Position numbers and translations under genes: made by a program
Part shown: piece after piece, positions 723-31,145 of the stretch
Position numbering within the stretch: the first letter of the stretch is position 1
How the letters are laid out: each line of letters opens with the position of its first letter
The notes under the pieces: model-generated
The model's database searches: none
What the model was told of the DNA's origin: nothing
Seen by the model: only the letters and a program-made list of their open reading frames with translations
NCBI GenBank assembly: GCA_030604855.1
Contig: JAUVVC010000003.1
Location: forward strand, 204,247 to 236,246
Direction of reading: 5' to 3'
Length of the DNA: 32,000 nt
Source of the DNA: Erysipelotrichaceae bacterium
GTDB lineage: Bacteria; Bacillota_I; Bacilli_A; Erysipelotrichales; Erysipelotrichaceae

Positions 723-865
723 CGTCTTTTGACCTGAAAGATTCTCTTGCGATTGCCTCTTCGGTGGATGACTCTCTCTACGAAGCTTTGTCCAAATCCG
801 GTCCTTTTGCCTGAGCGTTCATGCGCACTGCGCCTTCGGCGTCAACGAATTGATCTCTCCCGGAT
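720..865 (-). promoter_or_regulatory. Tandem glycine riboswitch (two aptamers, about 865-796 and 785-720)
   Basis: Minus-strand read. Aptamer 1: ATCCGGGAGAGATC..GACGCCGAAGGCGCA..CTCAGGCAAAAGGACCGGAT. Aptamer 2: CTTCGTAGAGAGAGTCATCCACCGAAGAGGCAA..TTCAGGTCAAAAGACGAAG. Both carry the GGAGAG / CACCGAAGGGGCAA / CTCAGGCAAAAGGAC-type conserved cores and closing P1 helices. A TATAAT -10 (minus strand, 894-889) lies upstream. Confidence 0.85.
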
Positions 866-911
866 TCTTCAACCAAATATCTATGTTCATTATACTCAAT
901 CCATGACTTAA

Positions 912-4272: not shown

Positions 4273-5055
4273 TTAGTGAACGCGATAGATCTCGATGATG
4301 AAACTTAGCTCTGTTTCTAGGGTATTTTGAAGCTGTAGATTTGCCAAAGCTTCAGCTTTTGTCTTGAAGCGGTAGGGGGTCATGGTCAATAGGTTTTGAA
4401 TCATTTCTGTGCTGTTCAGCCTCAATAAATGATCGAACTTCATGGACTCGATCAATTCAAAACGCGTATCGTTTATCGTAGTGTTTGGATTCAAACGAAC
4501 CGTTTCATAGAGGACTTCCTTGAGTCCGTAAAGGTGACGAGGACCTGGAGTGACACAGATGAAATAACCTCCAGATTTGACGATGCGAGAAACTTCATCG
4601 AGCTTGTATGGTGCAAAGATGCACAAGGCCCCATCCATACTTCTATCCATCAAAGGTGTATCGGCAATGCTGGCACAGAAGTAGGTCGCTTTGGAAGCCT
4701 TGCTTGCGATCTTTAGTGCGGTCTTGGAAAGATCCAAGCCGATCCACTGTGTCTCAGACTCCGCCAAGGCATTAGTATAATAGCCTTCACCACAACCCAG
4801 ATCAACACAAACGTTCAGCTTCAATGCCTTGAAGATCTCAACCAGGGCATCTCTAAGAAAGCTGTAATGACCTGCATTTAAAAAGGCGTGTCGCGCCTTG
4901 ATCATATCAGGGTGATCACCCAAGATGCGTGCGCTGTTGGAGCTTAAAAGATGGGTGTAACCTTGTTTGGATATATCGAAACTGTGTTTGTTTTGACACA
5001 CCCATGAATGCTCAGAGCGCTTGAGCTGGGAGTTGCAATGTGGGCATTTGAACAT
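4273..5055 (-). CDS. rlmA: 23S rRNA (guanine-N1)-methyltransferase RlmA/RrmA family
   Basis: N-terminal Zn ribbon MFKCPHCNSQL..WVCQNKHSFD..GYTHLL followed by SAM motif DLGCGEGYY. The start is ambiguous: ATG 5055 matches the family N-terminus, ATG 5073 and TTG 5082 are in frame, and none has an SD. Confidence 0.8.
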   Translation of the reverse strand: MFKCPHCNSQLKRSEHSWVCQNKHSFDISKQGYTHLLSSNSARILGDHPDMIKARHAFLNAGHYSFLRDALVEIFKALKLNVCVDLGCGEGYYTNALAESETQWIGLDLSKTALKIASKASKATYFCASIADTPLMDRSMDGALCIFAPYKLDEVSRIVKSGGYFICVTPGPRHLYGLKEVLYETVRLNPNTTINDTRFELIESMKFDHLLRLNSTEMIQNLLTMTPYRFKTKAEALANLQLQNTLETELSFIIEIYRVH

Positions 5056-5121
5056 GATGCTTAATTTTATCATAGATGACAAAGTTTGACACTTTGTTTA
5101 TACTGAAGTGGAGGTGTGAAT

Positions 5122-5871
5122 ATGAAATTTGTATCATGGAATGTGAATGGGATAAGAGCCATTTTCAATAAGGGATTTGAAGATATTTTTAATGATTTTG
5201 ATGCGGACTTCTTTTGTCTTCAAGAAACGAAGATGCAGGAAGGGCAATTTGATTTCAGCCCTAAAGGATATTTGAAGTATTTCAATTATGCGGAAAAGAA
5301 AGGGTATTCTGGGACAGCGATCTATACCCGTCATGAACCGATGTCGGTTCGTTATGGAATCAATGTGGAGGAACATGACCATGAAGGTCGTGTCGTGACC
5401 TTGGAATACGATCGTTTCTTTTTAGTTTGTGTGTACACGCCCAATGCGCAGGAAGAACTCAGACGTTTGAGTTATCGTATGGATTGGGAAGATGCCTTCA
5501 GAGCCTATTTGCTTGAATTGGATCAATTCAAACCGGTCATCCTTTGTGGCGATTTGAATGTAGCCCATGAAGAAATCGACCTTAAGAATCCCAAGACCAA
5601 TCGTAAAAACCCAGGTTTCTCGGATGAGGAACGTGCTAAGTTTACCGAGCTGTTGAGTGTGGGCTTCATCGATACCTTCAGAACCTTGTATCCTGAGAAG
5701 GTTCAATATTCTTGGTGGTCGTATCGGATGCGTGCACGTGAAAACAATACGGGATGGAGAATTGATTACTTCGTCATTTCAGAGCGTTTGAAAACGGAGT
5801 TAAAGGAAGCGTTGATTCATGATGACGTGTTTGGATCGGACCATTGTCCCGTATCCATCGAGGTGTTCTAA
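5122..5871 (+). CDS. exoA: Exodeoxyribonuclease III (AP endonuclease)
   Basis: MKFVSWNVNGIRA..FCLQETK..GYSGTAIY..CGDLNVAH..SDHCP motifs. SD GGAGGTG lies 5 nt before ATG 5122; the track's GTG 5116 start is less likely. Confidence 0.9.
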   Translation: MKFVSWNVNGIRAIFNKGFEDIFNDFDADFFCLQETKMQEGQFDFSPKGYLKYFNYAEKKGYSGTAIYTRHEPMSVRYGINVEEHDHEGRVVTLEYDRFFLVCVYTPNAQEELRRLSYRMDWEDAFRAYLLELDQFKPVILCGDLNVAHEEIDLKNPKTNRKNPGFSDEERAKFTELLSVGFIDTFRTLYPEKVQYSWWSYRMRARENNTGWRIDYFVISERLKTELKEALIHDDVFGSDHCPVSIEVF

Positions 5872-7064: not shown

Positions 7065-7067
7065 TTT

Positions 7068-7101
7068 AAAAGGTTCCTCACATGTGCTGGGAACCTTTTT
7101 T
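7068..7101. terminator. Bidirectional intrinsic terminator
   Basis: AAAAGGTTCC-(12 nt loop)-GGAACCTTTTTT between convergent genes. Confidence 0.8.
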
Positions 7102-7121: not shown

Positions 7122-7412
7122 CTAAAATGAATAACGTCGTGGACGCTTGGTTCTGCGTGATGCCAATAAGAGAAACAAGATTCCCAAGATGAGAAACATC
7201 AAACTGATTCCAAGGATCCAAAAAGCACGATCGATGAAATACCAAGCATTGACTTGTGTTTCAAATAAGGCAACCAAGCCTAAAAGGATGAGCCCTCGGG
7301 GTGGTTTGGGGCTATGAATGAGGTTGAGTAATGCTGTGATTAAGTCGATTTGCATCAAAATGGCCAAGATAAGGAGGATGAAAGATGTCATATATAGGAA
7401 TGTTTTTTGCAT
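7122..7412 (-). CDS. Small hypothetical membrane protein (about 3 TM helices, basic C-tail RRTKRPRRYSF)
   Basis: 96 aa. Lies 48 nt downstream of the last GntR gene on the same strand, with GAGGG as SD. I recognise no family. Confidence 0.55.
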   Translation of the reverse strand: MQKTFLYMTSFILLILAILMQIDLITALLNLIHSPKPPRGLILLGLVALFETQVNAWYFIDRAFWILGISLMFLILGILFLLLASRRTKRPRRYSF

Positions 7413-7460
7413 AGCGAGACCCTCGTCTTAAATTCTATCAAAAAACATAAGATAAGTGTA

Positions 7461-8198
7461 CTAGACATCGAAACTTACGGTGACATTTTGTCCTTGAATG
7501 TAGGCGATGCTGTATTCAATGATCTGTCCATCGGGTGCATAGGCGATCGTATCCAATTTGAAACCTGGTGAACCAGATTCGATTTTGAAATGTTTACACA
7601 GTTCATCATTCAACACAACCGCATGAATGGTTCGTTTGGCGTAGTCCACGACATTCATCGGATGATTGCTGAGATACTGTGAGATGGAAGTTTTACTCGT
7701 GTCAAGATGTTCGAGTTCCGGAAATAACTGAAGGGGTCGATAGAACTCAAAATAGAAGAGGATTTGATCGTCACCTTTGTATAAGCGTTTGATGCACATG
7801 TATCGCGAATCCTTTTCACGGCTCAAGAAGTCGTCGTGTTGCTCATGGCAAGAGATGATAGTATGCTCAAGTTCAATCGTACTTGGTTCCATTCCAGATA
7901 AACGAATCTTCTCACTTAAGGGTTTCGTAGAAGCCAATAGACCGTAATGGAAATCCTTGTGTTTGACAAAACTCCCCTTGCCTTTTTGGCGAAAAATCAG
8001 GTGTTCATCCAATAGTTGTTTATACGCTTGACGGATGACCGGACGGGATAAACCGAATGCGGAACGATAGTCTTCTTCGGTTGGGAGTTTTTCTCCATCG
8101 CTCAATTTGCCACTCAGGATCGCTTCTTTGATGTGACGATAAAGTTGTTGGTGCAAAGGCGTTGAACTGTGCTTATCTAATTTCAAATCACTGAACAT
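7461..8198 (-). CDS. GntR-family regulator, HutC/UTRA subfamily (class B, copy 2)
   Basis: 245 aa. wHTH LPTEEDYRSAFGLSRPVIRQAYKQL..GKGSFV followed by a UTRA-like C-terminal domain. The start overlaps the upstream gene by 11 nt. Confidence 0.85.
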   Translation of the reverse strand: MFSDLKLDKHSSTPLHQQLYRHIKEAILSGKLSDGEKLPTEEDYRSAFGLSRPVIRQAYKQLLDEHLIFRQKGKGSFVKHKDFHYGLLASTKPLSEKIRLSGMEPSTIELEHTIISCHEQHDDFLSREKDSRYMCIKRLYKGDDQILFYFEFYRPLQLFPELEHLDTSKTSISQYLSNHPMNVVDYAKRTIHAVVLNDELCKHFKIESGSPGFKLDTIAYAPDGQIIEYSIAYIQGQNVTVSFDV

Positions 8199-8934
8199 CG
8201 TCTTTCTCCTTTGCGATGATTTCTAGAATATGGCGTTCACCCGGGAAATATGAGACGCGACTGAAATAGGTTTCGCCTTGATCGTCCTGCATGTTCATGA
8301 AGTATCGAAAACAAGCGGATTTACGCTGAACTTCCAAAATATCCGCTAGGCTATCATCAAGGATGACCACATTAATGGAGGTCTCAACAACATACTTCAC
8401 ATCTGGATAGTAAGACATCAAGGCCTTAGAGAGACCGATGTTTTCCTGATAGATTTCATCAAAGTCCGGGAATTTGTTTTGAGGGACATAAAAGTATTCA
8501 AGATAAACAGGGATATGGGAGGCTTTGCGAATACGCTTGATGCAATAGATTGCAGAATCCATTTCACGAATCCCATGTGGGAGATCCTCTTTATCAATGA
8601 TTTCAAAGCTGAGTTGATGAGACTCGGGCTTGAATCCTAAGTCTGTGATCAATTGATCGTAATCTAAGTTGTAAGGAAGATTTGTGAAGATCATCTCACG
8701 ATGAACGAAGGTACCCTTGCCTTGAATGCGTTTCACAAGACCCTCATTGATGAGTTCGACGTATGCTTGACGAACGACGGGACGTGAGATGTTGAAGACT
8801 TCACAGAGAGCATATTCTGTGGGGAGTTGTTCCTTGTCTTTAAGGATGCCCGAAAGAATGGCATTCTTGATGCTGTTCTTGAGTTGGAGATAGAGAGGTA
8901 TGCTGGAGAATTTATTGATGGTGATGTAATTCAT
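8188..8934 (-). CDS. GntR-family regulator, HutC/UTRA subfamily (class A, copy 2)
   Basis: 248 aa. MNYITINKFSSIPLYLQL..LPTEYALCEVFNISRPVVRQAY..GKGTFV, ending SYFPGERH plus an acidic tail. Confidence 0.85.
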   Translation of the reverse strand: MNYITINKFSSIPLYLQLKNSIKNAILSGILKDKEQLPTEYALCEVFNISRPVVRQAYVELINEGLVKRIQGKGTFVHREMIFTNLPYNLDYDQLITDLGFKPESHQLSFEIIDKEDLPHGIREMDSAIYCIKRIRKASHIPVYLEYFYVPQNKFPDFDEIYQENIGLSKALMSYYPDVKYVVETSINVVILDDSLADILEVQRKSACFRYFMNMQDDQGETYFSRVSYFPGERHILEIIAKEKDDVQ

Positions 8935-8941
8935 AAGGTAC

Positions 8942-9679
8942 CTAGAAATAGTTCAGCTGCATGCTGGTGCCAATGCCTTTGACGTAGGTGTGACTGATTT
9001 CGATGACACGGCCGTACTGGTCATAGGAGAAGGTTTCAATGCGGAAACCAGCGGATCCCAAGGGTAGATTGAGATGGGTGCAGATCGAATCTTCAATAAG
9101 AATGGCTTTGACATGTCGTTTTGATTGAATAGTTCTAAAATCAAAATTCTTTTTGACATAATCGGATAAGGCTTGATTGGGCGCTAGATTTTCCAACATG
9201 TTGGGATAAACGATTTCAGGCAGATACAGTTCGATATAGAAAAGCGGCATCGAATCCCCGAAGTAGATGCGTTTGATCCGCAGTATCGGGCTTGTTTCCA
9301 AGAGTTCGAATTGATTTCTTAGCTCAGGCGTGCAATCGATGCGTTCGATGCTTATATGCTGAATGCTTGGCTTCATGTTGTTGATGTCGATTTGGTGGTT
9401 CAAAGATGCAATGGAGTCCAAGATGGTATAACGGATGTTGCTTTTCAGCACAAAGCTTCCTTTGCCTTTATGACGATAGATCAACTCTTCTTCGATCAAC
9501 TGCTTATACGCTTGGCGTACGACCGGACGTGAAATGTTGAAGTGAAGACAGAGTTCCTCTTCAGTAGGGAGTTTATGCCCAGGTGGATACTGATTGGAGC
9601 GGATAGCCATCTTGATTTCGTTTGCGAGTTGCTGATGTAAAGGAATCAAACTGTTCTTATCGAGTGTTAAGCGTTTCAT
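8942..9679 (-). CDS. GntR-family regulator, HutC/UTRA subfamily (class B, copy 1)
   Basis: 245 aa. LDKNSLIPLHQQL..LPTEEELCLHFNISRPVVRQAYKQL..GKGSFV. ATGA overlap with the upstream gene. Confidence 0.85.
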   Translation of the reverse strand: MKRLTLDKNSLIPLHQQLANEIKMAIRSNQYPPGHKLPTEEELCLHFNISRPVVRQAYKQLIEEELIYRHKGKGSFVLKSNIRYTILDSIASLNHQIDINNMKPSIQHISIERIDCTPELRNQFELLETSPILRIKRIYFGDSMPLFYIELYLPEIVYPNMLENLAPNQALSDYVKKNFDFRTIQSKRHVKAILIEDSICTHLNLPLGSAGFRIETFSYDQYGRVIEISHTYVKGIGTSMQLNYF

Positions 9680-10422
9680 GTGTCGACCTCGTGTATATCG
9701 ACGTCGATACTGTGACGTTCGCCAGGGAAATAACTGATTTTAAAGAATATAAGTGTTTTGTCATCGGTATAGTGAATGATGTCGAATTTTATGGCAGCGG
9801 ATTGGAATTCAACTTCTAAGAGTTGAGCGATGGAGTCATCCAGATTCACGGCTGAAACCAAGCATTCGCTCTTAAGATTTTCATAACCATAGATATCTCT
9901 GATCAATCGTGTGATCGAAAATTCGTTGGATATATGGACTGCCAGATCTTTAAAGAGATGGATTGGAAGATAAAAGATCTCGTAGAAAAGAGGGATATCA
10001 TCAGCTTTGCGGATGCGTTTAAAGATGTAATAACTTTTATAATCCGGTAAAGGAAAGTGGAAAGGAGGCAGGTCATCGTGGTCGATGATATCGATACTGA
10101 TGATTTGAGAGGAAGGTTGGAATCCTTTGGCAAGGACTTCTTCATTAAAGGTTTGCTTAAAAAAGATGTTTGAAAACTCGATCTTCTTTCTGACGAAACT
10201 GCCACGTCCTTGGAAACGTTCAATCAAGCCTTCTTCATGTAAGGCGCGATAGGCTTGGCGAATGACAGGGCGTGAAATATTAAAGGTTTCAGCTAAAACC
10301 TCCTCAGGTGGCAACTTATCTTTGTCCTTTAATTGACCGTTGTGGATCGCAGCTTTGATGGAATCGTAAAGTTGAATGTACAGAGGCGTTTTTGAGAATT
10401 TGTTGATGCGGATGTAGTTCAT
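9676..10422 (-). CDS. GntR-family regulator, HutC/UTRA subfamily (class A, copy 1)
   Basis: 248 aa. MNYIRINKFSKTPLYIQL..FNISRPVIRQAY..GRGSFV, ending SYFPGERH plus an acidic tail. First gene of the array. Confidence 0.85.
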   Translation of the reverse strand: MNYIRINKFSKTPLYIQLYDSIKAAIHNGQLKDKDKLPPEEVLAETFNISRPVIRQAYRALHEEGLIERFQGRGSFVRKKIEFSNIFFKQTFNEEVLAKGFQPSSQIISIDIIDHDDLPPFHFPLPDYKSYYIFKRIRKADDIPLFYEIFYLPIHLFKDLAVHISNEFSITRLIRDIYGYENLKSECLVSAVNLDDSIAQLLEVEFQSAAIKFDIIHYTDDKTLIFFKISYFPGERHSIDVDIHEVDT

Positions 10423-10504
10423 TCGAGTTTCGTCCTTATGGTATACTTAATTGAAGCACTGCTTACAGTATAACAAATTTAATGCAGATTGGTAATGTCA
10501 TAAC

Positions 10505-11692
10505 ATGATATCGTATAAACTACCGGATTCCGTAAAAATCGTCTTGAATCGCTTGGAAACTGAGGGTTTCGAAGCTTTTGTCGTGGGTGGATTTGTCCGT
10601 GACTTGTTGTTGAATCGAGAAACACATGATTGTGATGTCACGACCAATGCGAGACCCCATGAAATTGAACACGTATTCCTGGATTATAAACAATCACATA
10701 TTGGTAAGGACCATGGAACAGTGGGTGTGAAGGTCAATGGGGAGTGGATAGAAATCACGACCTATCGTGTGGATGAGGCTTCATTGGACCATCGTCGTCC
10801 TCAGGCGGTACGTTTTTCAACGCATCTAAAAGAAGATGTGATGCGTCGTGATTTCACGATGAATGCCTTGGCGATGGATGGCTCGGGTGCGTTGATTGAT
10901 TTTGTAGGGGGTCAAGAAGATATTCGATCGAAAGTGATTCGATGTGTGGGAGATCCCCATTTGCGCTTTGATGAAGATGCTTTACGGATTCTTAGGGCAT
11001 TACGTTTTGCGGCTCAATTGAATTTCAAGATTGACGAGAAGAGCATCACAGCGATGCGCACACATGCACATCTGCTCAGTGGGTTGGCGGTGGAACGTGT
11101 TTTTCAGGAACTTCAGCTCATGTTTGGGGCGAAGCATGCATCCCTTGCTTTTGAGTATGGACAAGATATTCTGAGACACGTCATCGAAATGAAGCAGCTC
11201 AGTCCTATTGAAATTGAGCTGTTGGATAGGTTTGAAGACGTACGAAGTAAGTGGGTGATCTGTTTTCTGACGAAGCCTGTGGATGAATTACGCAGTCAAT
11301 TGGCCAGATTGAAAGCACCGAAGAGATTCATTCAAGATTGTGCGCAGTTGCACACAGTTTTTCATCATCGTTTTACCAAGGATGATTATGCAATGAAATG
11401 GATGATGCATCAGTATCCAAGTCTGATCTTACAGTTATCCATGGATCTGAAGAGGAAACTTCAAGATCCAAACTATGATGAAGATGCACATCAGCTGTTG
11501 AATCGTTTAATGGACGAGAACGCTTGTGTCCATATCAAGGATTTGGACCTGAATGGGCATGATTTGATGGAATATCAAATCAAGGGAAAGCAGATTCAAA
11601 ACCTGTTAGAGAAGGCTTTGGACGGTGTCATGCGCAATCAGGTTGAGAATTCCAAAAAAGCACTCCTGGCTTGGCTCAACTTGACATCGTGA
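10505..11692 (+). CDS. cca: CCA-adding tRNA nucleotidyltransferase
   Basis: 395 aa. GGFVRDLLL..D.D (PolyA_pol head), RRDFTMNA, and ED.LRILRALRF motifs. Confidence 0.9.
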   Translation: MISYKLPDSVKIVLNRLETEGFEAFVVGGFVRDLLLNRETHDCDVTTNARPHEIEHVFLDYKQSHIGKDHGTVGVKVNGEWIEITTYRVDEASLDHRRPQAVRFSTHLKEDVMRRDFTMNALAMDGSGALIDFVGGQEDIRSKVIRCVGDPHLRFDEDALRILRALRFAAQLNFKIDEKSITAMRTHAHLLSGLAVERVFQELQLMFGAKHASLAFEYGQDILRHVIEMKQLSPIEIELLDRFEDVRSKWVICFLTKPVDELRSQLARLKAPKRFIQDCAQLHTVFHHRFTKDDYAMKWMMHQYPSLILQLSMDLKRKLQDPNYDEDAHQLLNRLMDENACVHIKDLDLNGHDLMEYQIKGKQIQNLLEKALDGVMRNQVENSKKALLAWLNLTS

Positions 11693-13188: not shown

Positions 13189-13872
13189 TTAGTTTCTGGT
13201 AACTTCATTGATGAGGTAAGCCGCATCAACAGAGAGTTCGCCAGTATTGGTGATGAATGAAGCGTATTTGGAGTCTGTATATTGACCCATACCGCCGACG
13301 TTGTAAATCTTGCTCATGTCATAACCTTTGACTTCAAGGATCTTCATCATTTGTGCAACACGTCCACCGGATTGACAGAAGAGGAAGAGTGTCTTATCTT
13401 TTGGGAACAATGCATTCAACAACGCATCGGATTCTTTGTAGACAGCGACAGGTGCATCAATCGCACCACCATACAATTGAACCATCGTTGCATCGGTATG
13501 TGCATTCGCATTGAAGATGTATGCAAAGTAAGGAACGACTTCGAAGTTGCGGAAATGCTTCATGGAGTAATCTTTGAAATCACGAAGATCGATGTAGACG
13601 ACATCATCGCGATTCATGTATTGGTCTAAGTTTTCAACACCGATCGAAGAACAGCTTGCGGCATAGACGCCAGCTTCACAATTCTTTTCAGGCTGGTCCT
13701 TTGCTGGGACATATTTCTTTGTGGTATCGATGGGTGCAGGAAGTTCTGCTTGAAGTACATAACCATTTTCAGCTGGATTCAAGACCCAACCTTCTTCTTG
13801 GAGTTGGGCTTCAGATTTAGCACAACCCACTAAAGCAAGACTTAAAACAAGTAACGCTAATAATTTTTTCAT
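13189..13872 (-). CDS. Rhodanese-domain lipoprotein with intact active-site loop (putative extracytoplasmic sulfurtransferase)
   Basis: 227 aa. Signal peptide plus lipobox LALVGC. Rhodanese fold VVYIDLRD..LFLFCQSGGRVAQM (CxxGxR catalytic loop). 13 nt after the upstream lipoprotein gene. Confidence 0.8.
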   Translation of the reverse strand: MKKLLALLVLSLALVGCAKSEAQLQEEGWVLNPAENGYVLQAELPAPIDTTKKYVPAKDQPEKNCEAGVYAASCSSIGVENLDQYMNRDDVVYIDLRDFKDYSMKHFRNFEVVPYFAYIFNANAHTDATMVQLYGGAIDAPVAVYKESDALLNALFPKDKTLFLFCQSGGRVAQMMKILEVKGYDMSKIYNVGGMGQYTDSKYASFITNTGELSVDAAYLINEVTRN

Positions 13873-13885
13873 TTCCTTTTTCCTT

Positions 13886-14617
13886 TTAGTCGAAGTATTC
13901 GTCTTCTGAGTGGTATGTCATAATGGCATGTAACATCCGAATGATGTTGTTTGTGGAAACGGATGAGCCGGTGAAGGTATCCAATTTGAAAGCATCGCGG
14001 CCATTGGCTTGATAATCTTCCAATTTAATATCTTCCATGACACTTAATGATTTGATGTAGGCATAATCTTTGTCGATGAAGTAAGGGATGTATTCAGTCT
14101 TGAAGACGGAATAACTTACGCCTGCTGGAGTTGGATTGCTATCGCCCCAGAAACCTCCATTGTATTCACCATTCGGATCTTTATCAAAGGATAAGTAACG
14201 AACGATGACGTCATCAGCTGCTTTCGATTCAGGTAGACTCAATTCAACATAAGCAGTTTGCCAATAGTTGACAGATGCCGCACGACAGGTACAAGAGAGA
14301 TACGTGATTTGGTATTTGATGTAATCACGTGCTACGTACTTGTAGTGTACGAAAGCGTAGAAGCTGGATTCGTTGCGTGGTCCATCGATATGGTCGATGG
14401 GAACGATGGCAACGGTGTTTGCGATTGAACCGGGTCCTAAATCAGCACTTGAATTCAAGAATTCATTGATTTGTTCCAAACTGAGTTCAGATCCATCACT
14501 GCACTCAACGGGTGTGTTCGCAACAGGATCGCCAGTCGGTTCCGCTTGGTCGGCAGCACAAGCATAAAGGCTAGACAAGACTAGACTAAGCAATAAAATG
14601 AATAAGATTTTTTTCAT
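13886..14617 (-). CDS. Lipoprotein of unknown function with FMN-binding-domain-like C-terminus
   Basis: Start at ATG 14617 (SD AAAGGAG), giving MKKILFILLLSLVLSSLYAC as a lipobox-like signal. The track's 14710 start is a spurious extension. The C-terminal KLDTFTGSSVSTNNIIRML resembles the D-x-x-[ST]-G-[AS]-[ST] flavinylation motif. Confidence 0.75.
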   Translation of the reverse strand: MKKILFILLLSLVLSSLYACAADQAEPTGDPVANTPVECSDGSELSLEQINEFLNSSADLGPGSIANTVAIVPIDHIDGPRNESSFYAFVHYKYVARDYIKYQITYLSCTCRAASVNYWQTAYVELSLPESKAADDVIVRYLSFDKDPNGEYNGGFWGDSNPTPAGVSYSVFKTEYIPYFIDKDYAYIKSLSVMEDIKLEDYQANGRDAFKLDTFTGSSVSTNNIIRMLHAIMTYHSEDEYFD

Positions 14618-14755
14618 TGTGACTCCTTTCACAAATAATTTTAGCGAATCAAAAGGAAGATTACAGGATAACTTACTACAAAAATCATAAAAATGTAATA
14701 TATTTATCATTTTTTATGTTATAACTTGAAGGTAAGGAAACGAATAGACAACAAT

Positions 14756-15415
14756 ATGAGAAGAATTTCACAAGTACTTGTTATCGGGTTATGCATACTG
14801 GGGGCATTCACGGCGTGTCAAGCCGCGCCGGTTCTTGAAGAAGACGTCAACATCACGATTCCAGTTAAAAATGAATCGGTAAAAATACAGGATTCACCCA
14901 TAACAAGTTTGAATCTGGATGACTACTTATTTAGAGAAGATGTCTTTTATGTGGATACACGTGAATTGAATCAAGTGATGGAAGAGGGGTCGATTGCTGG
15001 TTTTGTGACCTATCCTTTTTATGAGTTGCTTGCGAATTTGGTTGAAGGGAAGACTTTGTTCAAAATGACGAAAGTTCTGGATTCCAACAATGCCTTATTG
15101 ATTGAATTGGGGGGTGTTGGAAGTTATGTACCTCGTTTTGAAGAATCAGAATACTTATTAAAGGCTTTGTTTCCTAAGGATAAAACCATCTTCATCAGTT
15201 CCACGGCTGGGGTTGAAGCGACGTATTTAGCAAATCTCTTGATTCAATATGGTTACGATCCTCTTAAGATATACAATGTCGGTAACTTCAGCAACGACTT
15301 AGGCACACTCGTCGCGTATCGAAACAATAAAAAAGCCAAGTACTTTGTACCTGGCACGAATGTCTTCACTTTGGATTATGCGTTTGATTTAGGTGAATTG
15401 ACAGCGCTTGATTGA
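14756..15415 (+). CDS. Rhodanese-like lipoprotein lacking the catalytic cysteine (paralog of 13189-13872)
   Basis: MRRISQVLVIGLCILGAFTAC lipobox. Aligns with its paralog: LKALFPKDKTIFISSTAGVEA..GYDPLKIYNVG versus LNALFPKDKTLFLFCQSGGRVA..GYDMSKIYNVG. No Cys after the lipobox. TTG 14726 is an alternative start. Confidence 0.75.
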   Translation: MRRISQVLVIGLCILGAFTACQAAPVLEEDVNITIPVKNESVKIQDSPITSLNLDDYLFREDVFYVDTRELNQVMEEGSIAGFVTYPFYELLANLVEGKTLFKMTKVLDSNNALLIELGGVGSYVPRFEESEYLLKALFPKDKTIFISSTAGVEATYLANLLIQYGYDPLKIYNVGNFSNDLGTLVAYRNNKKAKYFVPGTNVFTLDYAFDLGELTALD

Positions 15416-24161: not shown

Positions 24162-24830
24162 ATGGATCAAACAAATCAATTATTCTGGGATGCGGCCGCA
24201 AGTGGTGACTTTCAAAAGGTCGTCGCTACCGTAAACCAGGGCGCGGATGTGAACATTCGCAACGCAGAGGCTAGAACGGCATTGATGCGGACGGCAAAAC
24301 GTGGACATGAAAAGATTGTTCGCTATTTGTTGGACAAGGGTGCGGATGTCAACGCGAAAGACAACAACAGTAAGACGGCTTTGATGGGTGCGGCTAAGAA
24401 GGGACATCTTGAAATCGTCAAGATGTTGTTGGATGCTGGTGCAGAGGTCAATGTCCAAGATGTCAAAGGACGCAGCGCATTAATGCGGGCAGGCTTCTTG
24501 GGTCATTCGGATGTGGTGGAATTATTGCTTAAAAAAGGTGCGAATCCAGATGCTAAAGATGAAATGGGTCGTACGGTCTTGATGGAAGCGTGTTTGGCAT
24601 TCCGTTATGATGTCATCAAGCTCTTATTGAAACAAAACGCGAAAATCAATGAACAAGACAACAATGGATGCACGGCCTTGATGCGTGCTGCTTACAGTGG
24701 GTATGCGGAAATGGTTCAGTACTTATTGGATCATGGGGCAGACAAAGAATTGTTGGATGCGGAAGGCAATAAAGCCATTCATTATGTCCGCACAGATTGT
24801 TTAACGGATCTTAAGCCGTTGTTGAAATAG
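24162..24830 (+). CDS. Ankyrin-repeat protein (about 6-7 ANK repeats, no signal peptide)
   Basis: 222 aa. Repeats of G(A)DVN..D..G.TALM.AA..GH.EIV..LL. Strong SD GAGGAGG. Confidence 0.9.
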   Translation: MDQTNQLFWDAAASGDFQKVVATVNQGADVNIRNAEARTALMRTAKRGHEKIVRYLLDKGADVNAKDNNSKTALMGAAKKGHLEIVKMLLDAGAEVNVQDVKGRSALMRAGFLGHSDVVELLLKKGANPDAKDEMGRTVLMEACLAFRYDVIKLLLKQNAKINEQDNNGCTALMRAAYSGYAEMVQYLLDHGADKELLDAEGNKAIHYVRTDCLTDLKPLLK

Positions 24831-24843
24831 GAGTCAAACGAAA

Positions 24844-26925
24844 ATGAAAGATTATGCAGCACATGAAGTGAAAAACATCTGTCTCTTAGGTCATTCCGGT
24901 TCGGGAAAAACAGCGGTCGTCGAAGCGATGCTTCACTTGACCAAAGTTACGGATCGGATGGGGAAAACCCTTGATGGAACCTCCGTTTTGGATTATGATC
25001 CTGAAGAAATCAAACGTGGACAATCGGTCTTCACATCGCTTGCGCCCATTGAATGGAAAGATCATAAGATCAACTTTGTCGATACACCGGGTTATTTCGA
25101 TTATGCCCAAGAAATGGAAGCCGGCTTAGCGGTTTCGGATAATGCTTTGATTGTCGTGGATGGTAAAGATGGAGTTCAAACAGGAACCTTACGTGCCTTC
25201 AAACAAGTGACAAAACGTAAACTTCCTTCCATTTTCTTCATCAACAAACTGGATGAAGAAAACGCCAATTTTGAAAAAGTGTACGATCAGTTGCGAGATA
25301 CTTTTGGTAAAACGGTCATTCCATTTGAATTGCCGATTTATGATAAAGGTCAAATCGTAGGTTCGGTCAATGTCTTGAGGAATAAAGCCTGGTATCTGAG
25401 TGATCGTGAGAATGCGAAAGAGGTTCCTGCTGAGCTCAGCGCTCAAGTGGAAGAATATCGCAATCAGATCAGTGAAGCGGTTGCGATGACCTGTGATGAT
25501 TTGATGGAAAAATTCTTCTCTGGTGAGACCTTTGATGAGGCTGAACTTGTTCAAGGGGTGCGCTTGGGTGTTCGTTCAGGTGAAATCCGTCCGGTTTATG
25601 CAGGCAGTGCAGTCAAGATGCTTGGGATTGAGCGTTTATTGGATCTGATTGGCGAGTATTTCCCGTCCTATGGTGAAATCGGAACCGTTGAAGCCTTGGA
25701 TGCTCATGATGAAATCATCAAGATGCATACCGATGAATCCGAAGCCTTCAGTGCCCTGGTATATAAAACGTTGATCGACCCCTTTGTCGGACGCATCTCA
25801 TTTGTTAAAGTCATGAGTGGTGTCTTGACCTCCGATACGCAAGTCGTGAATGTCCAAAAAGACAAAGCGGAGAAAGTCGCACAGATCTTTATCATTAAAG
25901 GTAAACATCAGTTGGCGGTAGGAAAACTCTTCACCGGTGACTTGGGTGCAATCGTCAAGCTTCAATACACACAGACCAACGATACCTTGGCTACGAAAGC
26001 CAAACCGGTACGTTATCCAAACATCGTCTTCCCAGAAGGCTTGTTGGCAATGAGCATCTGGCCTAAGAGTAAGAATGATGAAGATAAGATGAGCACATCG
26101 CTTCAACGAATTGAAGAAGAAGATCCTTCATTCAAGATGATGAAGAATGGTGAGACCAATGAATTGGTTGTCTATGGACTTGGAGACCAACACTTGGATG
26201 TCGTCGTCAATAAGTTGCGGAATAAGTATAAGGTTGAAGTGGATTTGAAAGAACCTCGTATTCCTTATCGTGAAACCATTCGATCGACCGTTACGGTAGA
26301 AGGTAAACATAAGAAACAATCCGGTGGGGCAGGTCAATTTGGAGATGTCTTCATCACCTTCGAACCATGTGACAGTGAAGATATGGTTTTTGAAGAAAAA
26401 GTCTTTGGTGGAGCTGTACCAAAACAGTACTTCCCAGCAGTAGAACAAGGACTCCGAGAAGCCATGGTCAAGGGTGTCCTAGCCGGTTATCGTGTCGTGG
26501 GTGTCAAAGCAACCTTGATCGATGGTAAGTACCATGAAGTCGATTCAAAAGAAATCGCCTTCAAAATGGCCGCTCGTCTCGCATACAAAGCAGGGATGCC
26601 ACAAGCAAAACCTGCATTGCTCGAACCGATTGTAAAAATAAGTGTGACCATTCCTGAAGAGTATACAGGTACGGTCATCGGTGATTTCAACAAGCGTAGA
26701 GGATTGATTCTGGGAATGGAATTGAATGATGAAGGTGAACAAGTCGTTTCCGCAGAAGTTCCCATGTCGGAAGTCATGCGTTATTCAACAGAACTCAGAT
26801 CCTTCACACAAGGAATCGGTACCTACACACAAGTGTTTGATCGATATGAGCCAGCACCGCAACCGATTGCCGATAAAGTCGTTGCAAATGCGAAACATCA
26901 TATGGATAATGAAGAGGATGAATAA
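24844..26925 (+). CDS. Elongation factor G paralog (EF-G2-like translational GTPase)
   Basis: 693 aa. G1 GHSGSGKT, G3 DTPGY, G4 NKLD, and the domain IV loop GKYHEVDSKEIAFK. Starts 13 nt after the ank stop, with GGAG as SD. Confidence 0.85.
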   Translation: MKDYAAHEVKNICLLGHSGSGKTAVVEAMLHLTKVTDRMGKTLDGTSVLDYDPEEIKRGQSVFTSLAPIEWKDHKINFVDTPGYFDYAQEMEAGLAVSDNALIVVDGKDGVQTGTLRAFKQVTKRKLPSIFFINKLDEENANFEKVYDQLRDTFGKTVIPFELPIYDKGQIVGSVNVLRNKAWYLSDRENAKEVPAELSAQVEEYRNQISEAVAMTCDDLMEKFFSGETFDEAELVQGVRLGVRSGEIRPVYAGSAVKMLGIERLLDLIGEYFPSYGEIGTVEALDAHDEIIKMHTDESEAFSALVYKTLIDPFVGRISFVKVMSGVLTSDTQVVNVQKDKAEKVAQIFIIKGKHQLAVGKLFTGDLGAIVKLQYTQTNDTLATKAKPVRYPNIVFPEGLLAMSIWPKSKNDEDKMSTSLQRIEEEDPSFKMMKNGETNELVVYGLGDQHLDVVVNKLRNKYKVEVDLKEPRIPYRETIRSTVTVEGKHKKQSGGAGQFGDVFITFEPCDSEDMVFEEKVFGGAVPKQYFPAVEQGLREAMVKGVLAGYRVVGVKATLIDGKYHEVDSKEIAFKMAARLAYKAGMPQAKPALLEPIVKISVTIPEEYTGTVIGDFNKRRGLILGMELNDEGEQVVSAEVPMSEVMRYSTELRSFTQGIGTYTQVFDRYEPAPQPIADKVVANAKHHMDNEEDE

Positions 26926-28381: not shown

Positions 28382-28804
28382 ATGAAGAAATTACTCATCA
28401 GTGCATTAATGATTGCCATGATTCTCAGTGGTTGTACACAAAAGGGTTTGACCCAAGTCAAGCCGGCTGAGATAACAAAGAAATTCGAAGCCAATGAAAG
28501 CTTCGTCGTCTATTTTGGACTGTCCTACTGTGCGGCGTGTAAGATTTTTAGAAGCATCGTTGAGACCGTCATCGATGAGACCGGTACGGTTGTCTACTAT
28601 GTCGAATATGACAAAGAGGATCAAGCAGTTCTTGAGGACTTGGTTAAATCCCATTTGGAACAGAATGAAGCGTTTGGCTATTCCTTCCCGATCATTTACG
28701 TGATCAGCGAAGGGAAAATCGTCGATCAGTTCTCACTGGCTCAAACTGATACCGAGGAAGAATTTAAAGATCGGTTGATTAAAAATGGAGTCATTGCAGA
28801 GTAA
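28382..28804 (+). CDS. Thioredoxin-fold lipoprotein (CxxC = CAAC)
   Basis: MKKLLISALMIAMILSGC lipobox followed by FVVYFGLSYCAACK. SD GGAGGG. Confidence 0.7.
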   Translation: MKKLLISALMIAMILSGCTQKGLTQVKPAEITKKFEANESFVVYFGLSYCAACKIFRSIVETVIDETGTVVYYVEYDKEDQAVLEDLVKSHLEQNEAFGYSFPIIYVISEGKIVDQFSLAQTDTEEEFKDRLIKNGVIAE

Positions 28805-29585
28805 AGAACTCACTTCAGTCATCAATGCTGAAGACATCAAAAAACAATTGCTTCACCTTGGCATCAAGCAAGGTGATGTTTTAGAAGTGCATGCGTCCAT
28901 GAAAGCCATTGGCTATATATTGGGTGGCTCGAATACGGTTTTGGATGCCATTTTGGACGTGATTGGATATGAAGGAACCTTGGTGATGTCCGCCCAAGCG
29001 TTTGGCAACAGTGAACCTGCCTATTTTGAACATCCGCCTGTGGATGTTGGACTTTATCAAAAGATTCGTAGTTCACACCCGGTGTATCAAAGCAAGTTTG
29101 AAGATTTGCGCTACATGGGGGCATTAGCGACTTCCTTGCAGAAAAGGCCTGCGGTTTATTTTTCCAATCATCCCATCGCCAGTTTCATGAGCATCGGCAA
29201 ACATGCGAAATGGATCACGCAATCGCATCCATTGAATGATGAATTCGGATTGCGATCCCCCTTGGCCCGAATGGTTGAATTAAAAGCGAAGGTCATATTG
29301 ATCGGTGTGGATTATGATTCTTGTACTGGCATGCATTTGGGTGAACATCTCAGTGGTGTACGAGCTCTTCAAATTCAAGGCTCGCGCATGAATGTTTCCG
29401 GTAAGGAAGAATGGGTCAAGTTTCTAACACAGGACTATGATTCGGATGATTTCAAACCGATTGGTCGAGCGATGGAAGTGCAGAATAAAATCCAAGTTGG
29501 ACTGGTGGGTAATGCGGTCACTAAAGTATTTGATTTGGAAACGGCTGTGCGCTTCACACAGAAATATTTCGAGGAAAATGTATGA
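28785..29585 (+). CDS. AAC(3)-family aminoglycoside N-acetyltransferase-like protein (YokD-like)
   Basis: 266 aa. L..LGIKQGDVLEVHASMKAIG...GG..TVLDAILDVIG.EGTLVM is the typical Antibiotic_NAT N-terminus. The start overlaps the upstream gene by 20 nt and has no clear SD. Confidence 0.7.
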   Translation: MESLQSKELTSVINAEDIKKQLLHLGIKQGDVLEVHASMKAIGYILGGSNTVLDAILDVIGYEGTLVMSAQAFGNSEPAYFEHPPVDVGLYQKIRSSHPVYQSKFEDLRYMGALATSLQKRPAVYFSNHPIASFMSIGKHAKWITQSHPLNDEFGLRSPLARMVELKAKVILIGVDYDSCTGMHLGEHLSGVRALQIQGSRMNVSGKEEWVKFLTQDYDSDDFKPIGRAMEVQNKIQVGLVGNAVTKVFDLETAVRFTQKYFEENV

Positions 29586-30022
29586 GATTCACGATGCCAT
29601 TCTTCGATCGCTTCTTAGAAGTGATTGAAGATGAAAAAGGAATTTCCAGTCTTAGCTTCACAGATGAGCATGATGCGCCGCTCACAGAACCGAACTCAAG
29701 TATGCTGGAACTCAAAGAATATGCCGAAGGAAGACGTAAGTTCTTTACGCGTCCTCTGGTTTTGAAGGGTACAGAATTCCAGAAAGACGTTTGGGATGCC
29801 CTCTTGGCCATCCCTTATGGAGAAACCCGAACTTATCAAGAGATTGCGGAGGCAGTAAGAAGACCGAAGGCACTCCGTGCCGTCGGACAAGCCTGTCATG
29901 TGAATCCGATCGGCATCATCGTGCCCTGTCACCGTGTCATTGGGAAAAATGGCAAACTGACGGGTTATGCGGGTGGCTTGGATTATAAAGTATTATTGTT
30001 GGAACATGAAAAAATGGGCTGA
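29582..30022 (+). CDS. ogt: Methylated-DNA-protein-cysteine methyltransferase
   Basis: 146 aa. GT.FQ..VW..L..IPYGET.TY..IA and the active site PCHRVIG. ATGA overlap with the upstream gene. Confidence 0.9.
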   Translation: MRFTMPFFDRFLEVIEDEKGISSLSFTDEHDAPLTEPNSSMLELKEYAEGRRKFFTRPLVLKGTEFQKDVWDALLAIPYGETRTYQEIAEAVRRPKALRAVGQACHVNPIGIIVPCHRVIGKNGKLTGYAGGLDYKVLLLEHEKMG

Positions 30023-30490: not shown

Positions 30491-30534
30491 AGTTTCACCC
30501 TAGCTATTTTAGCATAGCTTGTGTTAGAATTAAA

Positions 30535-30650
30535 CCGTGAACAGGGGTGCCTTATGGCTGAGATGCGAACCGCAGACCCTCATCACCTGATCTAGGTAAA
30601 ACTAGCGTAGGGAGTTACACTTTCCTTACGCCTCACGGAGGTGTTTTTTT
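30535..30650 (+). promoter_or_regulatory. TPP (THI-box) riboswitch with terminator / SD-sequestering platform
   Basis: CAGGGGTGCC..GGCTGAGA..ACCCTCATCACCTGATCTAGGTAAAACTAGCGTAGGGA core. This is followed by ACAC.TCC..GGAGGTGT plus T7, which contains the SD, directly before the thiT ATG. An extended -10 TGTTAGAAT lies at 30522-30530. Confidence 0.88.
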
Positions 30651-31145
30651 ATGAAAAACCAGCGATTAGTATTGGAAATGGCTTGGATGGCTTTGTATGC
30701 GGCTTTGTTTATCGTATTAGATTACATCTCAAATCAGATCCCCTTCTTTAGAATGCCCAACGGTGGCACCCTCGGCTTCAGTACGATCGTGCTCTTGATT
30801 GCGGCATACCATCTTGGTTGGAAAAAGGGTGTCAGTGTCGCCTTATTGACGATTCCACTTCAAGGCTTCTTTGCGCCTTACTATTTCCAACACATCCTCG
30901 GCTTTGTGATGGAATATATTTTGGCTTTTAGTGTCTATGGTTTAGCTCCATTGTTTCCAAAATACAGTGGCATCGTGATCGTGAATACGATACGATTCTT
31001 GTTGCATCTGGTCGCAGGTGTGTATTTCTGGGAGACGACATGGTGGGCATCTTTCACTTACAATGCTTGGTACATGATTCCAACGATGCTAGTTGGTTTG
31101 ATTTTTGTCCCAATCGTCGTCAAACGTTTGAGAATAAATAGGTAA
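30651..31145 (+). CDS. thiT: Thiamine ECF-transporter S component
   Basis: 164 aa with 6 TM helices. ThiT-like ..MEYILAF..GLAPLF.. and ..HLVAGVYFW.. regions, and it is controlled by the TPP riboswitch. Confidence 0.8.
   Translation: MKNQRLVLEMAWMALYAALFIVLDYISNQIPFFRMPNGGTLGFSTIVLLIAAYHLGWKKGVSVALLTIPLQGFFAPYYFQHILGFVMEYILAFSVYGLAPLFPKYSGIVIVNTIRFLLHLVAGVYFWETTWWASFTYNAWYMIPTMLVGLIFVPIVVKRLRINR

Follow-up and report, generated by a model that had tools for sequence, protein, structure and literature searches.

A conserved array of four coupled HutC-type regulators in Erysipelotrichaceae, with two alternating classes that may act as heterodimers

Few metabolite sensors are as common in bacteria as the GntR/HutC regulators, which regulon reconstruction and biosensor design treat as simple homodimers. 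A 32-kb stretch of the genome of an Erysipelotrichaceae bacterium (assembly GCA_030604855.1, contig JAUVVC010000003.1, positions 204,247 to 236,246; the whole of this stretch is hereafter called the window) raises the question of what four such genes do when they stand in a row away from any sugar operon. In the six-frame list of open reading frames (ORFs) from which coordinates were taken, all four genes lie on the minus strand, in the order A1 (9676-10422, 248 amino acids), which is the first gene of the operon, B1 (8942-9679, 245 amino acids), A2 (8188-8934, 248 amino acids) and B2 (7461-8198, 245 amino acids), the letters denoting A-type and B-type HutC regulators. Read 5' to 3', the ATG of B1 overlaps the stop codon of A1 by 4 nt (ATGA), A2 starts 7 nt past B1, B2 overlaps A2 by 11 nt, and a spacer of 48 nt leads from B2 to an ORF of 96 amino acids. 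At each junction of the array, a Shine-Dalgarno-like GAGG, AGG or AAGGAG lies within the upstream gene. All four proteins matched the GntR winged helix-turn-helix (wHTH) family PF00392 (60-68 bits; Pfam gathering cut-off, 27) and the UTRA family PF07702 (39-82 bits; cut-off, 23.8). Thus, the intact genes, coordinates and junctions given in the original prediction agreed with the ORF list and the Pfam scores, and its by-eye estimate of one third to 40% identity within a class was close to the global amino acid identities obtained by alignment (A1-A2, 42%; B1-B2, 39%; cross-class, 32-36%).

No NCBIfam equivalog cut-off was reached by any of the four proteins (best matches, 78-105 bits, where 157-297 were needed), which removed PhnF, HutC, TreR and LSA1692 as named subfamilies. 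AlphaFold2 (AF2) models were made of A1 and B1 as single chains, with a mean predicted local distance difference test score (pLDDT) of 87.5 and 82.5, respectively, and residues 236-245 of B1 disordered. In Foldseek searches both models matched YvoA/NagR, DasR, PhnF and YydK, that is, the HutC fold. The A1 model superposed on the DNA-binding domain of YvoA (4u0y) with a template modelling (TM) score of 0.93 and a root-mean-square deviation of 0.8 Å, and the A1 and B1 models matched the effector domains of DasR, PhnF, YurK and HutC with TM scores of 0.74-0.88. The four proteins plainly belong to the HutC subfamily but fall outside NagR/DasR and every other named orthologous group.

The arrangement is not peculiar to this genome. 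A search of a 5.8-billion-protein collection for homologues of A1 returned only 37 clusters. One genome for each of 185,579 species was scanned for the peptide SRPV[VI]RQAY, which yielded 72 loci, the nearest of them from uncultured Erysipelotrichaceae metagenome-assembled genomes (MAGs) at no more than 74% identity. Arrays were called by searching the ORFs of the loci with a hidden Markov model (HMM) built from the four array proteins. The four-gene array was found, conserved at 58-83% identity, in at least eight other Erysipelotrichaceae genomes or metagenome contigs (L002/L003, L004, L005, L006/L007, L008, L009 and L081); L007 lies on the complete chromosome OW818653.1. Every four-gene array is divergent from cca, which encodes the CCA-adding enzyme, and a CNNM/CBS gene lies past cca. 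Two further metagenome contigs (L001 and L076) carry a single A-B pair with an overlapping ATGA-type junction, located after the gene of a metallo-beta-lactamase-fold hydrolase. The order was A then B in 10 of the 10 distinct A/B loci, always with an overlap or a gap of no more than 7 nt; conserved, coupled A-B adjacency, which the original prediction had named as a check, therefore held in every A/B locus found. No solitary A- or B-type gene appeared in the 185,579-species scan or among 82 B-type clusters sampled, a result that covers sequences sharing the search peptides.

The two classes were also separated by phylogeny. A neighbour-joining (NJ) tree (100 bootstraps) of the array proteins and their orthologues from six other genomes placed positions 1 and 3 in an A clade (bootstrap 95) and positions 2 and 4 in a B clade (87), in support of the alternation first seen by eye. 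Among the single positions, A1 (100), A2 (90) and B1 (96) formed clades of their own, and B2 alone was not monophyletic. Because positions 1 and 3 and positions 2 and 4 form two clades, the array arose by en-bloc duplication of an A-B pair, and on this tree the duplication is older than the divergence of the array-bearing species. The ratio of nonsynonymous to synonymous substitution rates (dN/dS) was estimated from L004 versus L005, where dS was about 1.0-1.3 and thus unsaturated, and gave 0.033 for A1, 0.097 for B1, 0.029 for A2 and 0.079 for B2. Ranges were 0.017-0.031 for A2, the lowest and most conserved of the four, and 0.04-0.08 for B2, and B-type genes evolve approximately three times faster than A-type genes. 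Values of about 0.03-0.10 indicate that all four genes are functional and under purifying selection. Tree and selection thus concur with the earlier view that the pair was duplicated long ago and that its genes are intact. Between the window and L005 (A2 there at 4860-5606), amino acid identity was 92% for A2, 80% for B2, 73% for A1 and 66% for B1, despite their location in one operon.

What, then, could hold an A gene and a B gene together? We tentatively read the array as an autoregulated operon of four HutC repressors that work as putative A:B heterodimers in two modules, a reading to which we give a little less than an even chance. The chief competing explanation, which we regard as quite possible although we would not bet on it, is that the array encodes four independent, co-transcribed homodimeric repressors that answer different metabolites and each act on a distant sugar locus of their own, or that form a cascade of the RhaS/RhaR kind, with one protein on the operon and the others on targets. 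Under that explanation, conserved gene order reflects ancestry and co-expression and not physical pairing. Identity within the array was 51-63% in the wHTH but just 22-33% in the UTRA domain, a divergence of the sensor domains that is expected if the ligands differ. However, independent homodimers account less readily for why the unit duplicated and retained was the pair and not a single gene, why A- or B-type genes were never met alone in the genome scan and the sampled contexts, and why gene overlaps were kept over at least 10 loci.

The DNA-binding residues bear on both explanations. In NagR of Bacillus subtilis, Arg38, Arg48 and Gly69 contact DNA, and Arg133, Arg135 and Glu145 contact the effector (PMC4333415). 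These residues were mapped by alignment to a NagR sequence of which residues 2-161 match the HMMER alignment to 2wv0 and the named residues match PMC4333415. The equivalents of Arg48 and of the wing residue Gly69 are kept in all four array proteins; at the equivalent of Arg38, A1, B1 and B2 have Glu and A2 has Tyr. This loss of Arg38 fits an A/T-rich dyad, TGTWATNACA (described below), rather than a G-rich dre site. A and B have the same recognition helix, SRPV(V/I)RQAY, and the same wing, (Q/K)G(K/R)G(S/T)FV, so all four proteins should read the same half-site. Intact DNA-binding residues in four of four proteins are what independent homodimers would need, and single relatives with the same recognition helix act alone in sugar loci. 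Conversely, identical DNA-reading residues would make four homodimers compete for the same sites instead of serving separate regulons.

A candidate for the common operator lies in the 82-nt spacer between A1 and cca (10505-11692, plus strand; Pfam PolyA_pol and tRNA_NucTran2_2), a control region that the two divergent genes share and whose sequence changes little from one four-gene locus to the next. A consensus scan placed a promoter-like site for the array on the minus strand at 10467-10495 (TTACCA, 17 nt, TATACT, with a TG-extended -10) of putative function. The blocks TTTGTTATA(A/C)T and ACATTAC of this promoter region are kept in all four-gene loci. Abutting the array -35 is the dyad O1, TGTTATGACA (10496-10505), a predicted HutC operator whose final base also serves as the first base of the cca ATG. 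O1 is the sole exact match to TGTWATNACA across the window, and its position is kept in the other arrays, exactly in L004, L005, L006, L008, L009 and L081, the L002 copy differing from the motif at one base. Across 75 non-redundant loci, which had been picked by the peptide SRPV[VI]RQAY, 52 TGTWATNACA sites were counted where 11.8 +/- 3.9 were expected (approximately 4.4-fold), in 40 loci where 10 were expected. In a recount with newer loci, 48 of 55 sites (87%) were intergenic, although intergenic bases made up 17% (p about 6e-30), and 21 were perfect palindromes. We infer that TGTWATNACA is the operator type of this regulator clade and that O1 is its predicted autoregulatory site in the array. 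Within the 75 loci, the motif, most often as the perfect palindrome TGTAATTACA, was seen in intergenic DNA near SRPV(V/I)RQAY HutC genes of Lachnospiraceae, Collinsella, Solobacterium and others (e.g., L040 3824-4066 and L028 1577-1665).

Other elements of the control region were read differently. A cca-facing, extended -10-like element, TGGTATACT (10439-10447, plus strand), was read from the sequence within the array leader and is likewise of putative function, and the block AGTATA(A/C)CATAA, its reverse complement, is present in all four-gene loci. Array and cca therefore seem to have overlapping divergent promoters (10439-10505), with the -10-like element of each within the leader of the other. 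The blocks TTTGTTATA(A/C)T and AGTATA(A/C)CATAA were considered as extra operators and are better read as two divergent extended -10 elements. Further candidate sites in the window, namely 'ATGTTATA' and one-mismatch sites at 14717, 16951 and 21219, were set aside as evidence for targets because, although intergenic, they resemble TGnTATAAT extended -10 elements; the dyad at 14717 is moreover not kept in L002 or L081. At the other end of the array, in the spacer that separates B2 from the small ORF, a block conserved over six loci (7432-7461, minus strand) contains an extended -10-like TGATAGAAT and might serve as an internal promoter of the small ORF. A scan detected no minus-strand terminator inside the array, including the interval between B2 and the small ORF. 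Past the small ORF, a GC-rich hairpin with flanking T and A runs (7065-7101) lies between that ORF and the convergent gene of a U5-methyltransferase and is likely to be a two-way terminator (fold energy, -15.2 kcal/mol for the minus-strand RNA and -13.0 for the plus strand); other loci have an equivalent hairpin and T run past the small ORF. No RNA elements or tRNAs were found in the array region. The array is thus probably transcribed as a single, autorepressed unit.

The position of O1 also suggests that the main job of the array could be control of cca through the shared 82-nt region, which would link tRNA 3'-end repair to a metabolic signal. We consider this highly unlikely. The proposal gains from the constant presence of a divergent cca at all four-gene loci, and of cca beside one C-D pair (L013; these pairs are described below), from the absence of a good Shine-Dalgarno sequence upstream of cca, and from the placement of O1, which ends on the A of the start codon and lies past the cca -10-like element, so that a repressor sitting there could keep cca from being transcribed or translated. 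However, autorepression of the array explains this placement equally well, and the single A-B pairs of L001 and L076 and most C-D pairs are located away from cca. In L013, moreover, cca has its own ribosome-binding site approximately 270 nt from the regulator promoter, with no dyad near.

A and B differ in the sensor domain. Among 27 A-type sequences, the equivalents of NagR Arg133, Arg135 and Glu145 are kept, as an invariant R136 and as R138 and E148 in at least 90%, and A-type proteins have Lys or Arg at position 224. A phosphorylated, (amino-)sugar-like metabolite is the putative ligand of the A type. B-type proteins keep the Arg133 equivalent, have Tyr in place of Arg135 in 36 of 36 sequences and a hydrophobic residue at 145, and are devoid of the C-terminal PG(D/E)R motif. 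B2 proteins of the L002/L006/L008/L009 subgroup have also deleted the phosphate loop, the counterpart of NagR 165-167. Pocket positions of B2 were conserved at 0.63 versus 0.47 for the whole domain, and those of B1 at 0.51 versus 0.49.

This asymmetry allows another interpretation, in which B-type proteins are ligand-insensitive modulators that act in mixed dimers or on the same operators, as a kind of dominant-negative partner, and that set basal repression or blunt induction. It has some appeal, since one phosphate-binding Arg, the Glu145 equivalent and the PG(D/E)R motif are all lost, one B2 subgroup has neither the phosphate loop nor a recorded UTRA match, the B1 pocket is no more conserved than its domain, and B has evolved approximately three times as fast as A. 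Even so, purifying selection is clear over the whole length of B, a complete UTRA fold was predicted for it by modelling, and the replacing Tyr is invariant, which suggests a new function of the pocket rather than decay. We therefore consider ligand-insensitive modulators unlikely.

Returning to A:B heterodimers, we find them the simplest explanation of the combined features, because the unit duplicated is the pair, neither class occurs alone, translation is coupled, the reading of DNA is shared and the pockets differ. Under this explanation, four functional HutC repressors and a small membrane protein would be produced from one autoregulated operon, whose ancestor would have been an A gene with a coupled B gene. 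All four proteins would bind one operator type, the TGTWATNACA dyad, with one copy at their own promoter. The working forms would be the mixed dimers A1:B1 and A2:B2, supplied in equal amounts through coupled translation. It would mainly be the A subunit that senses a phosphorylated (amino-)sugar-like metabolite, with the B subunit contributing a remodelled pocket (Arg to Tyr, PG(D/E)R gone), and the two modules might provide two inputs onto one operator type.

A parallel to this asymmetry came from a distinct type of coupled HutC pair, termed C-D, in 13 further non-redundant loci of other uncultured Erysipelotrichaceae (15 with near-duplicate records; L010/L011, L012-L019, L021, L022, L024 and L026); the L011 pair is carried by OW818635.1. 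C-D junctions are ATGA overlaps or gaps of no more than 12 nt, the pairs carry the identical type of SRPV(V/I)RQAY helix, and TGTWATNACA-type dyads occur near them in several loci (L010, L017). The first and second genes show the same pocket asymmetry as A and B: C proteins keep R-x-R and the Glu, and 11 of 13 D proteins have F/L/I-x-Y/H. R-x-R is retained in two basal D proteins and in related single genes, and D proteins retain PG(D/E)RN, the motif absent from the B type. The surroundings of C-D pairs are those of sugar metabolism, with phosphotransferase system (PTS) IIA and IIB genes on the divergent side, a SIS_2 protein and sometimes a major facilitator superfamily transporter upstream on the same strand, and genes for RDD, glycoside hydrolase family 4 (GH4), MupG, a GlmU-like enzyme and PTS EIIC converging from downstream. 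With a C-D pair serving one such compact locus, two separate repressors seem redundant, which again argues against independent homodimers. In L077, L078, L079, L080 and L016, PTS IIA/IIB, SIS_2, two coupled HutC genes, RDD, GH4, a 101-amino-acid ORF, a MupG-like 6-phospho-N-acetylmuramidase, a GlmU-like NTP-transferase/hexapeptide protein and PTS EIIC occur together. This conserved locus would seem to import and degrade an amino-sugar disaccharide of the cell-wall type. The C-D pair of L013 adjoins cca and CNNM as the array does, and two MAGs hold the array plus a separate C-D-like pair (L008 with L024, L009 with L026), that is, six such regulators per genome.

These relatives put the orphan position of the array in perspective. 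No catabolic or transport sugar operon is present in the window, which otherwise contains housekeeping and miscellaneous genes, the sole sugar-related one being a PfkB kinase approximately 16 kb off. The earlier statement that a cognate operon is missing thus holds across the 32 kb and fails as a family trait, since C-D relatives occupy amino-sugar loci. Because C-D pairs and single genes lie in PTS/SIS/GH4/MupG loci, the lineage is a normal one of amino-sugar regulators, in which the array came to its orphan position secondarily, and because these relatives are themselves coupled pairs, the unusual feature is the pairing and not the orphan status. Descent of the two kinds of pair from one is less clear. 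When scored with class HMMs, C was 36-54 bits better on the A-class than on the B-class HMM, and D was ambiguous, as were ordinary single HutC genes. The NJ tree gave no support (bootstrap 0) to a grouping of A with C or of B with D, so that a single origin of pairing cannot be claimed. A broader proposal, that HutC proteins of this kind are obligate asymmetric heterodimers and form an ancient Erysipelotrichaceae module, found as C-D at amino-sugar loci and as a free-standing four-protein, two-input regulator of its own promoter, cca and the small membrane protein in the array, is as a whole less likely than not.

Several observations weigh against A:B heterodimers. HutC regulators of solved structure are all homodimers, and their mode of dimerisation has been described as strictly conserved (PMC4918961), which also favours independent homodimers. 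As A and B share their DNA-reading residues, a symmetric operator suits homodimers equally, and its sequence cannot tell homodimers from heterodimers. The deep nodes joining A-B and C-D have a bootstrap of 0, so that simple tandem duplication may have given rise to pairs repeatedly. The higher conservation of the B2 pocket than of the rest of its domain, which also speaks for independent homodimers, means that B may bind a ligand of its own instead of being a silent partner. Charge complementarity of the sensor domains was uninformative, with A at approximately -8.5 and B at approximately -3, neither basic, and the relation reversed in C-D. No target genes beyond the operon were found in the window, which has one clear operator only. 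Finally, the original prediction had named orthologues flanking ordinary sugar loci as evidence for simple accumulation of paralogues; this is the situation of the C-D pairs and single relatives, although the array itself is an orphan. Taken together, we consider that independent homodimers fit the co-occurrence of the classes and their shared DNA specificity less well than A:B heterodimers do.

The small hydrophobic protein encoded downstream of B2 (7122-7412, minus strand, 96 amino acids; cluster c5) ends in a conserved basic tail, RRRY.F (RPRRYSF in the window), and contains hydrophobic segments, of which two are strong and a third is weaker. The ORF is located 48 nt past B2 as first described and is conserved; the three transmembrane segments then assigned to it are plausible from the hydrophobic segments. 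It follows B2 in every four-gene array that reaches far enough except L004, where a divergent 77-amino-acid ORF is found, and its dN/dS was 0.12-0.20. Only seven homologue clusters, all unannotated, were retrieved for the protein, and no Pfam family was assigned to it; PspC-TM and ATP8 were discarded as its family since their matches were sub-threshold.

Other features were observed elsewhere in the window. The genes at 13189-13872, 13886-14710 and 14726-15415 have no Pfam match; two of them are mutual paralogues (cluster c11), and in L002 and L081 the three keep their synteny with the array. The gene at 13886-14710 and a divergent gene starting near 14830 encode signal-peptide-like N-termini. 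Ankyrin-repeat proteins are uncommon in free-living Firmicutes; at 24162-24830, a 222-amino-acid protein composed almost entirely of ankyrin repeats is encoded directly upstream, on the same strand, of a full-length GTPase resembling elongation factor G (24844-26925). An aminoglycoside 3-N-acetyltransferase (28785-29585; PF02522, 204 bits) is flanked by a gene at 28382-28804 that lacks any Pfam match and, at 29582-30022, by one for an O6-methylguanine methyltransferase. A thiamine pyrophosphate riboswitch (30533-30630, plus strand) precedes the gene of a ThiT/YuaJ-type thiamine transporter (30651-31145); at the opposite end of the window lies a glycine riboswitch (789-872, minus strand).

If A and B do pair, a heterodimeric mode would be added to the HutC family, together with a natural route to multi-input repressors on one operator type. 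If the four proteins are separate homodimers, the finding shrinks to an unusually stable array of tandem paralogues in an uncultured lineage. TGTWATNACA provides a concrete candidate operator consensus that may apply across an entire clade of as yet uncharacterised regulators from Firmicutes.

Among known systems, the N-acetylglucosamine (GlcNAc) repressors NagR (YvoA) of B. subtilis and DasR of Streptomyces coelicolor share the two-domain build of the array proteins and were their best matches in sequence (4u0v, E 1.6e-22) and fold (Foldseek E about 1e-19 to 1e-20 for A1 and B1). A-type proteins keep the Arg133, Arg135 and Glu145 with which NagR holds GlcNAc 6-phosphate or glucosamine 6-phosphate, whereas B-type proteins are without Arg135 and Glu145. 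NagR and DasR are homodimers encoded by single genes that sit with or control nag genes, whereas the array consists of four coupled genes with no catabolic neighbour. RhaS and RhaR of Escherichia coli, which belong to the AraC family, are tandem paralogous activators in one autoregulated operon that act as separate homodimers on different promoters in a cascade. They resemble the array in their tandem paralogy and autoregulated operon, differ from it in family, and serve as the model for independent homodimers. Full-text searching of the literature turned up neither HutC heterodimers nor coupled HutC pairs; the nearest case was DevA/DevE of S. coelicolor, adjacent duplicated GntR-like paralogues with no sugar operon, of which DevA is autoregulatory (PMC3187754). 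Unlike the array proteins, DevA and DevE are approximately 58% identical, belong to another GntR subgroup, have distinct developmental roles and are encoded in separate transcription units (devA with devB; devE upstream), with no alternating classes, gene overlaps or pair duplication. The C-D pairs are likewise coupled HutC genes with the same asymmetry but occur as one pair instead of two and within a sugar locus. Measured against these systems, the fold and DNA-binding logic of the array are ordinary, whereas its genetic architecture is unusual and conserved.

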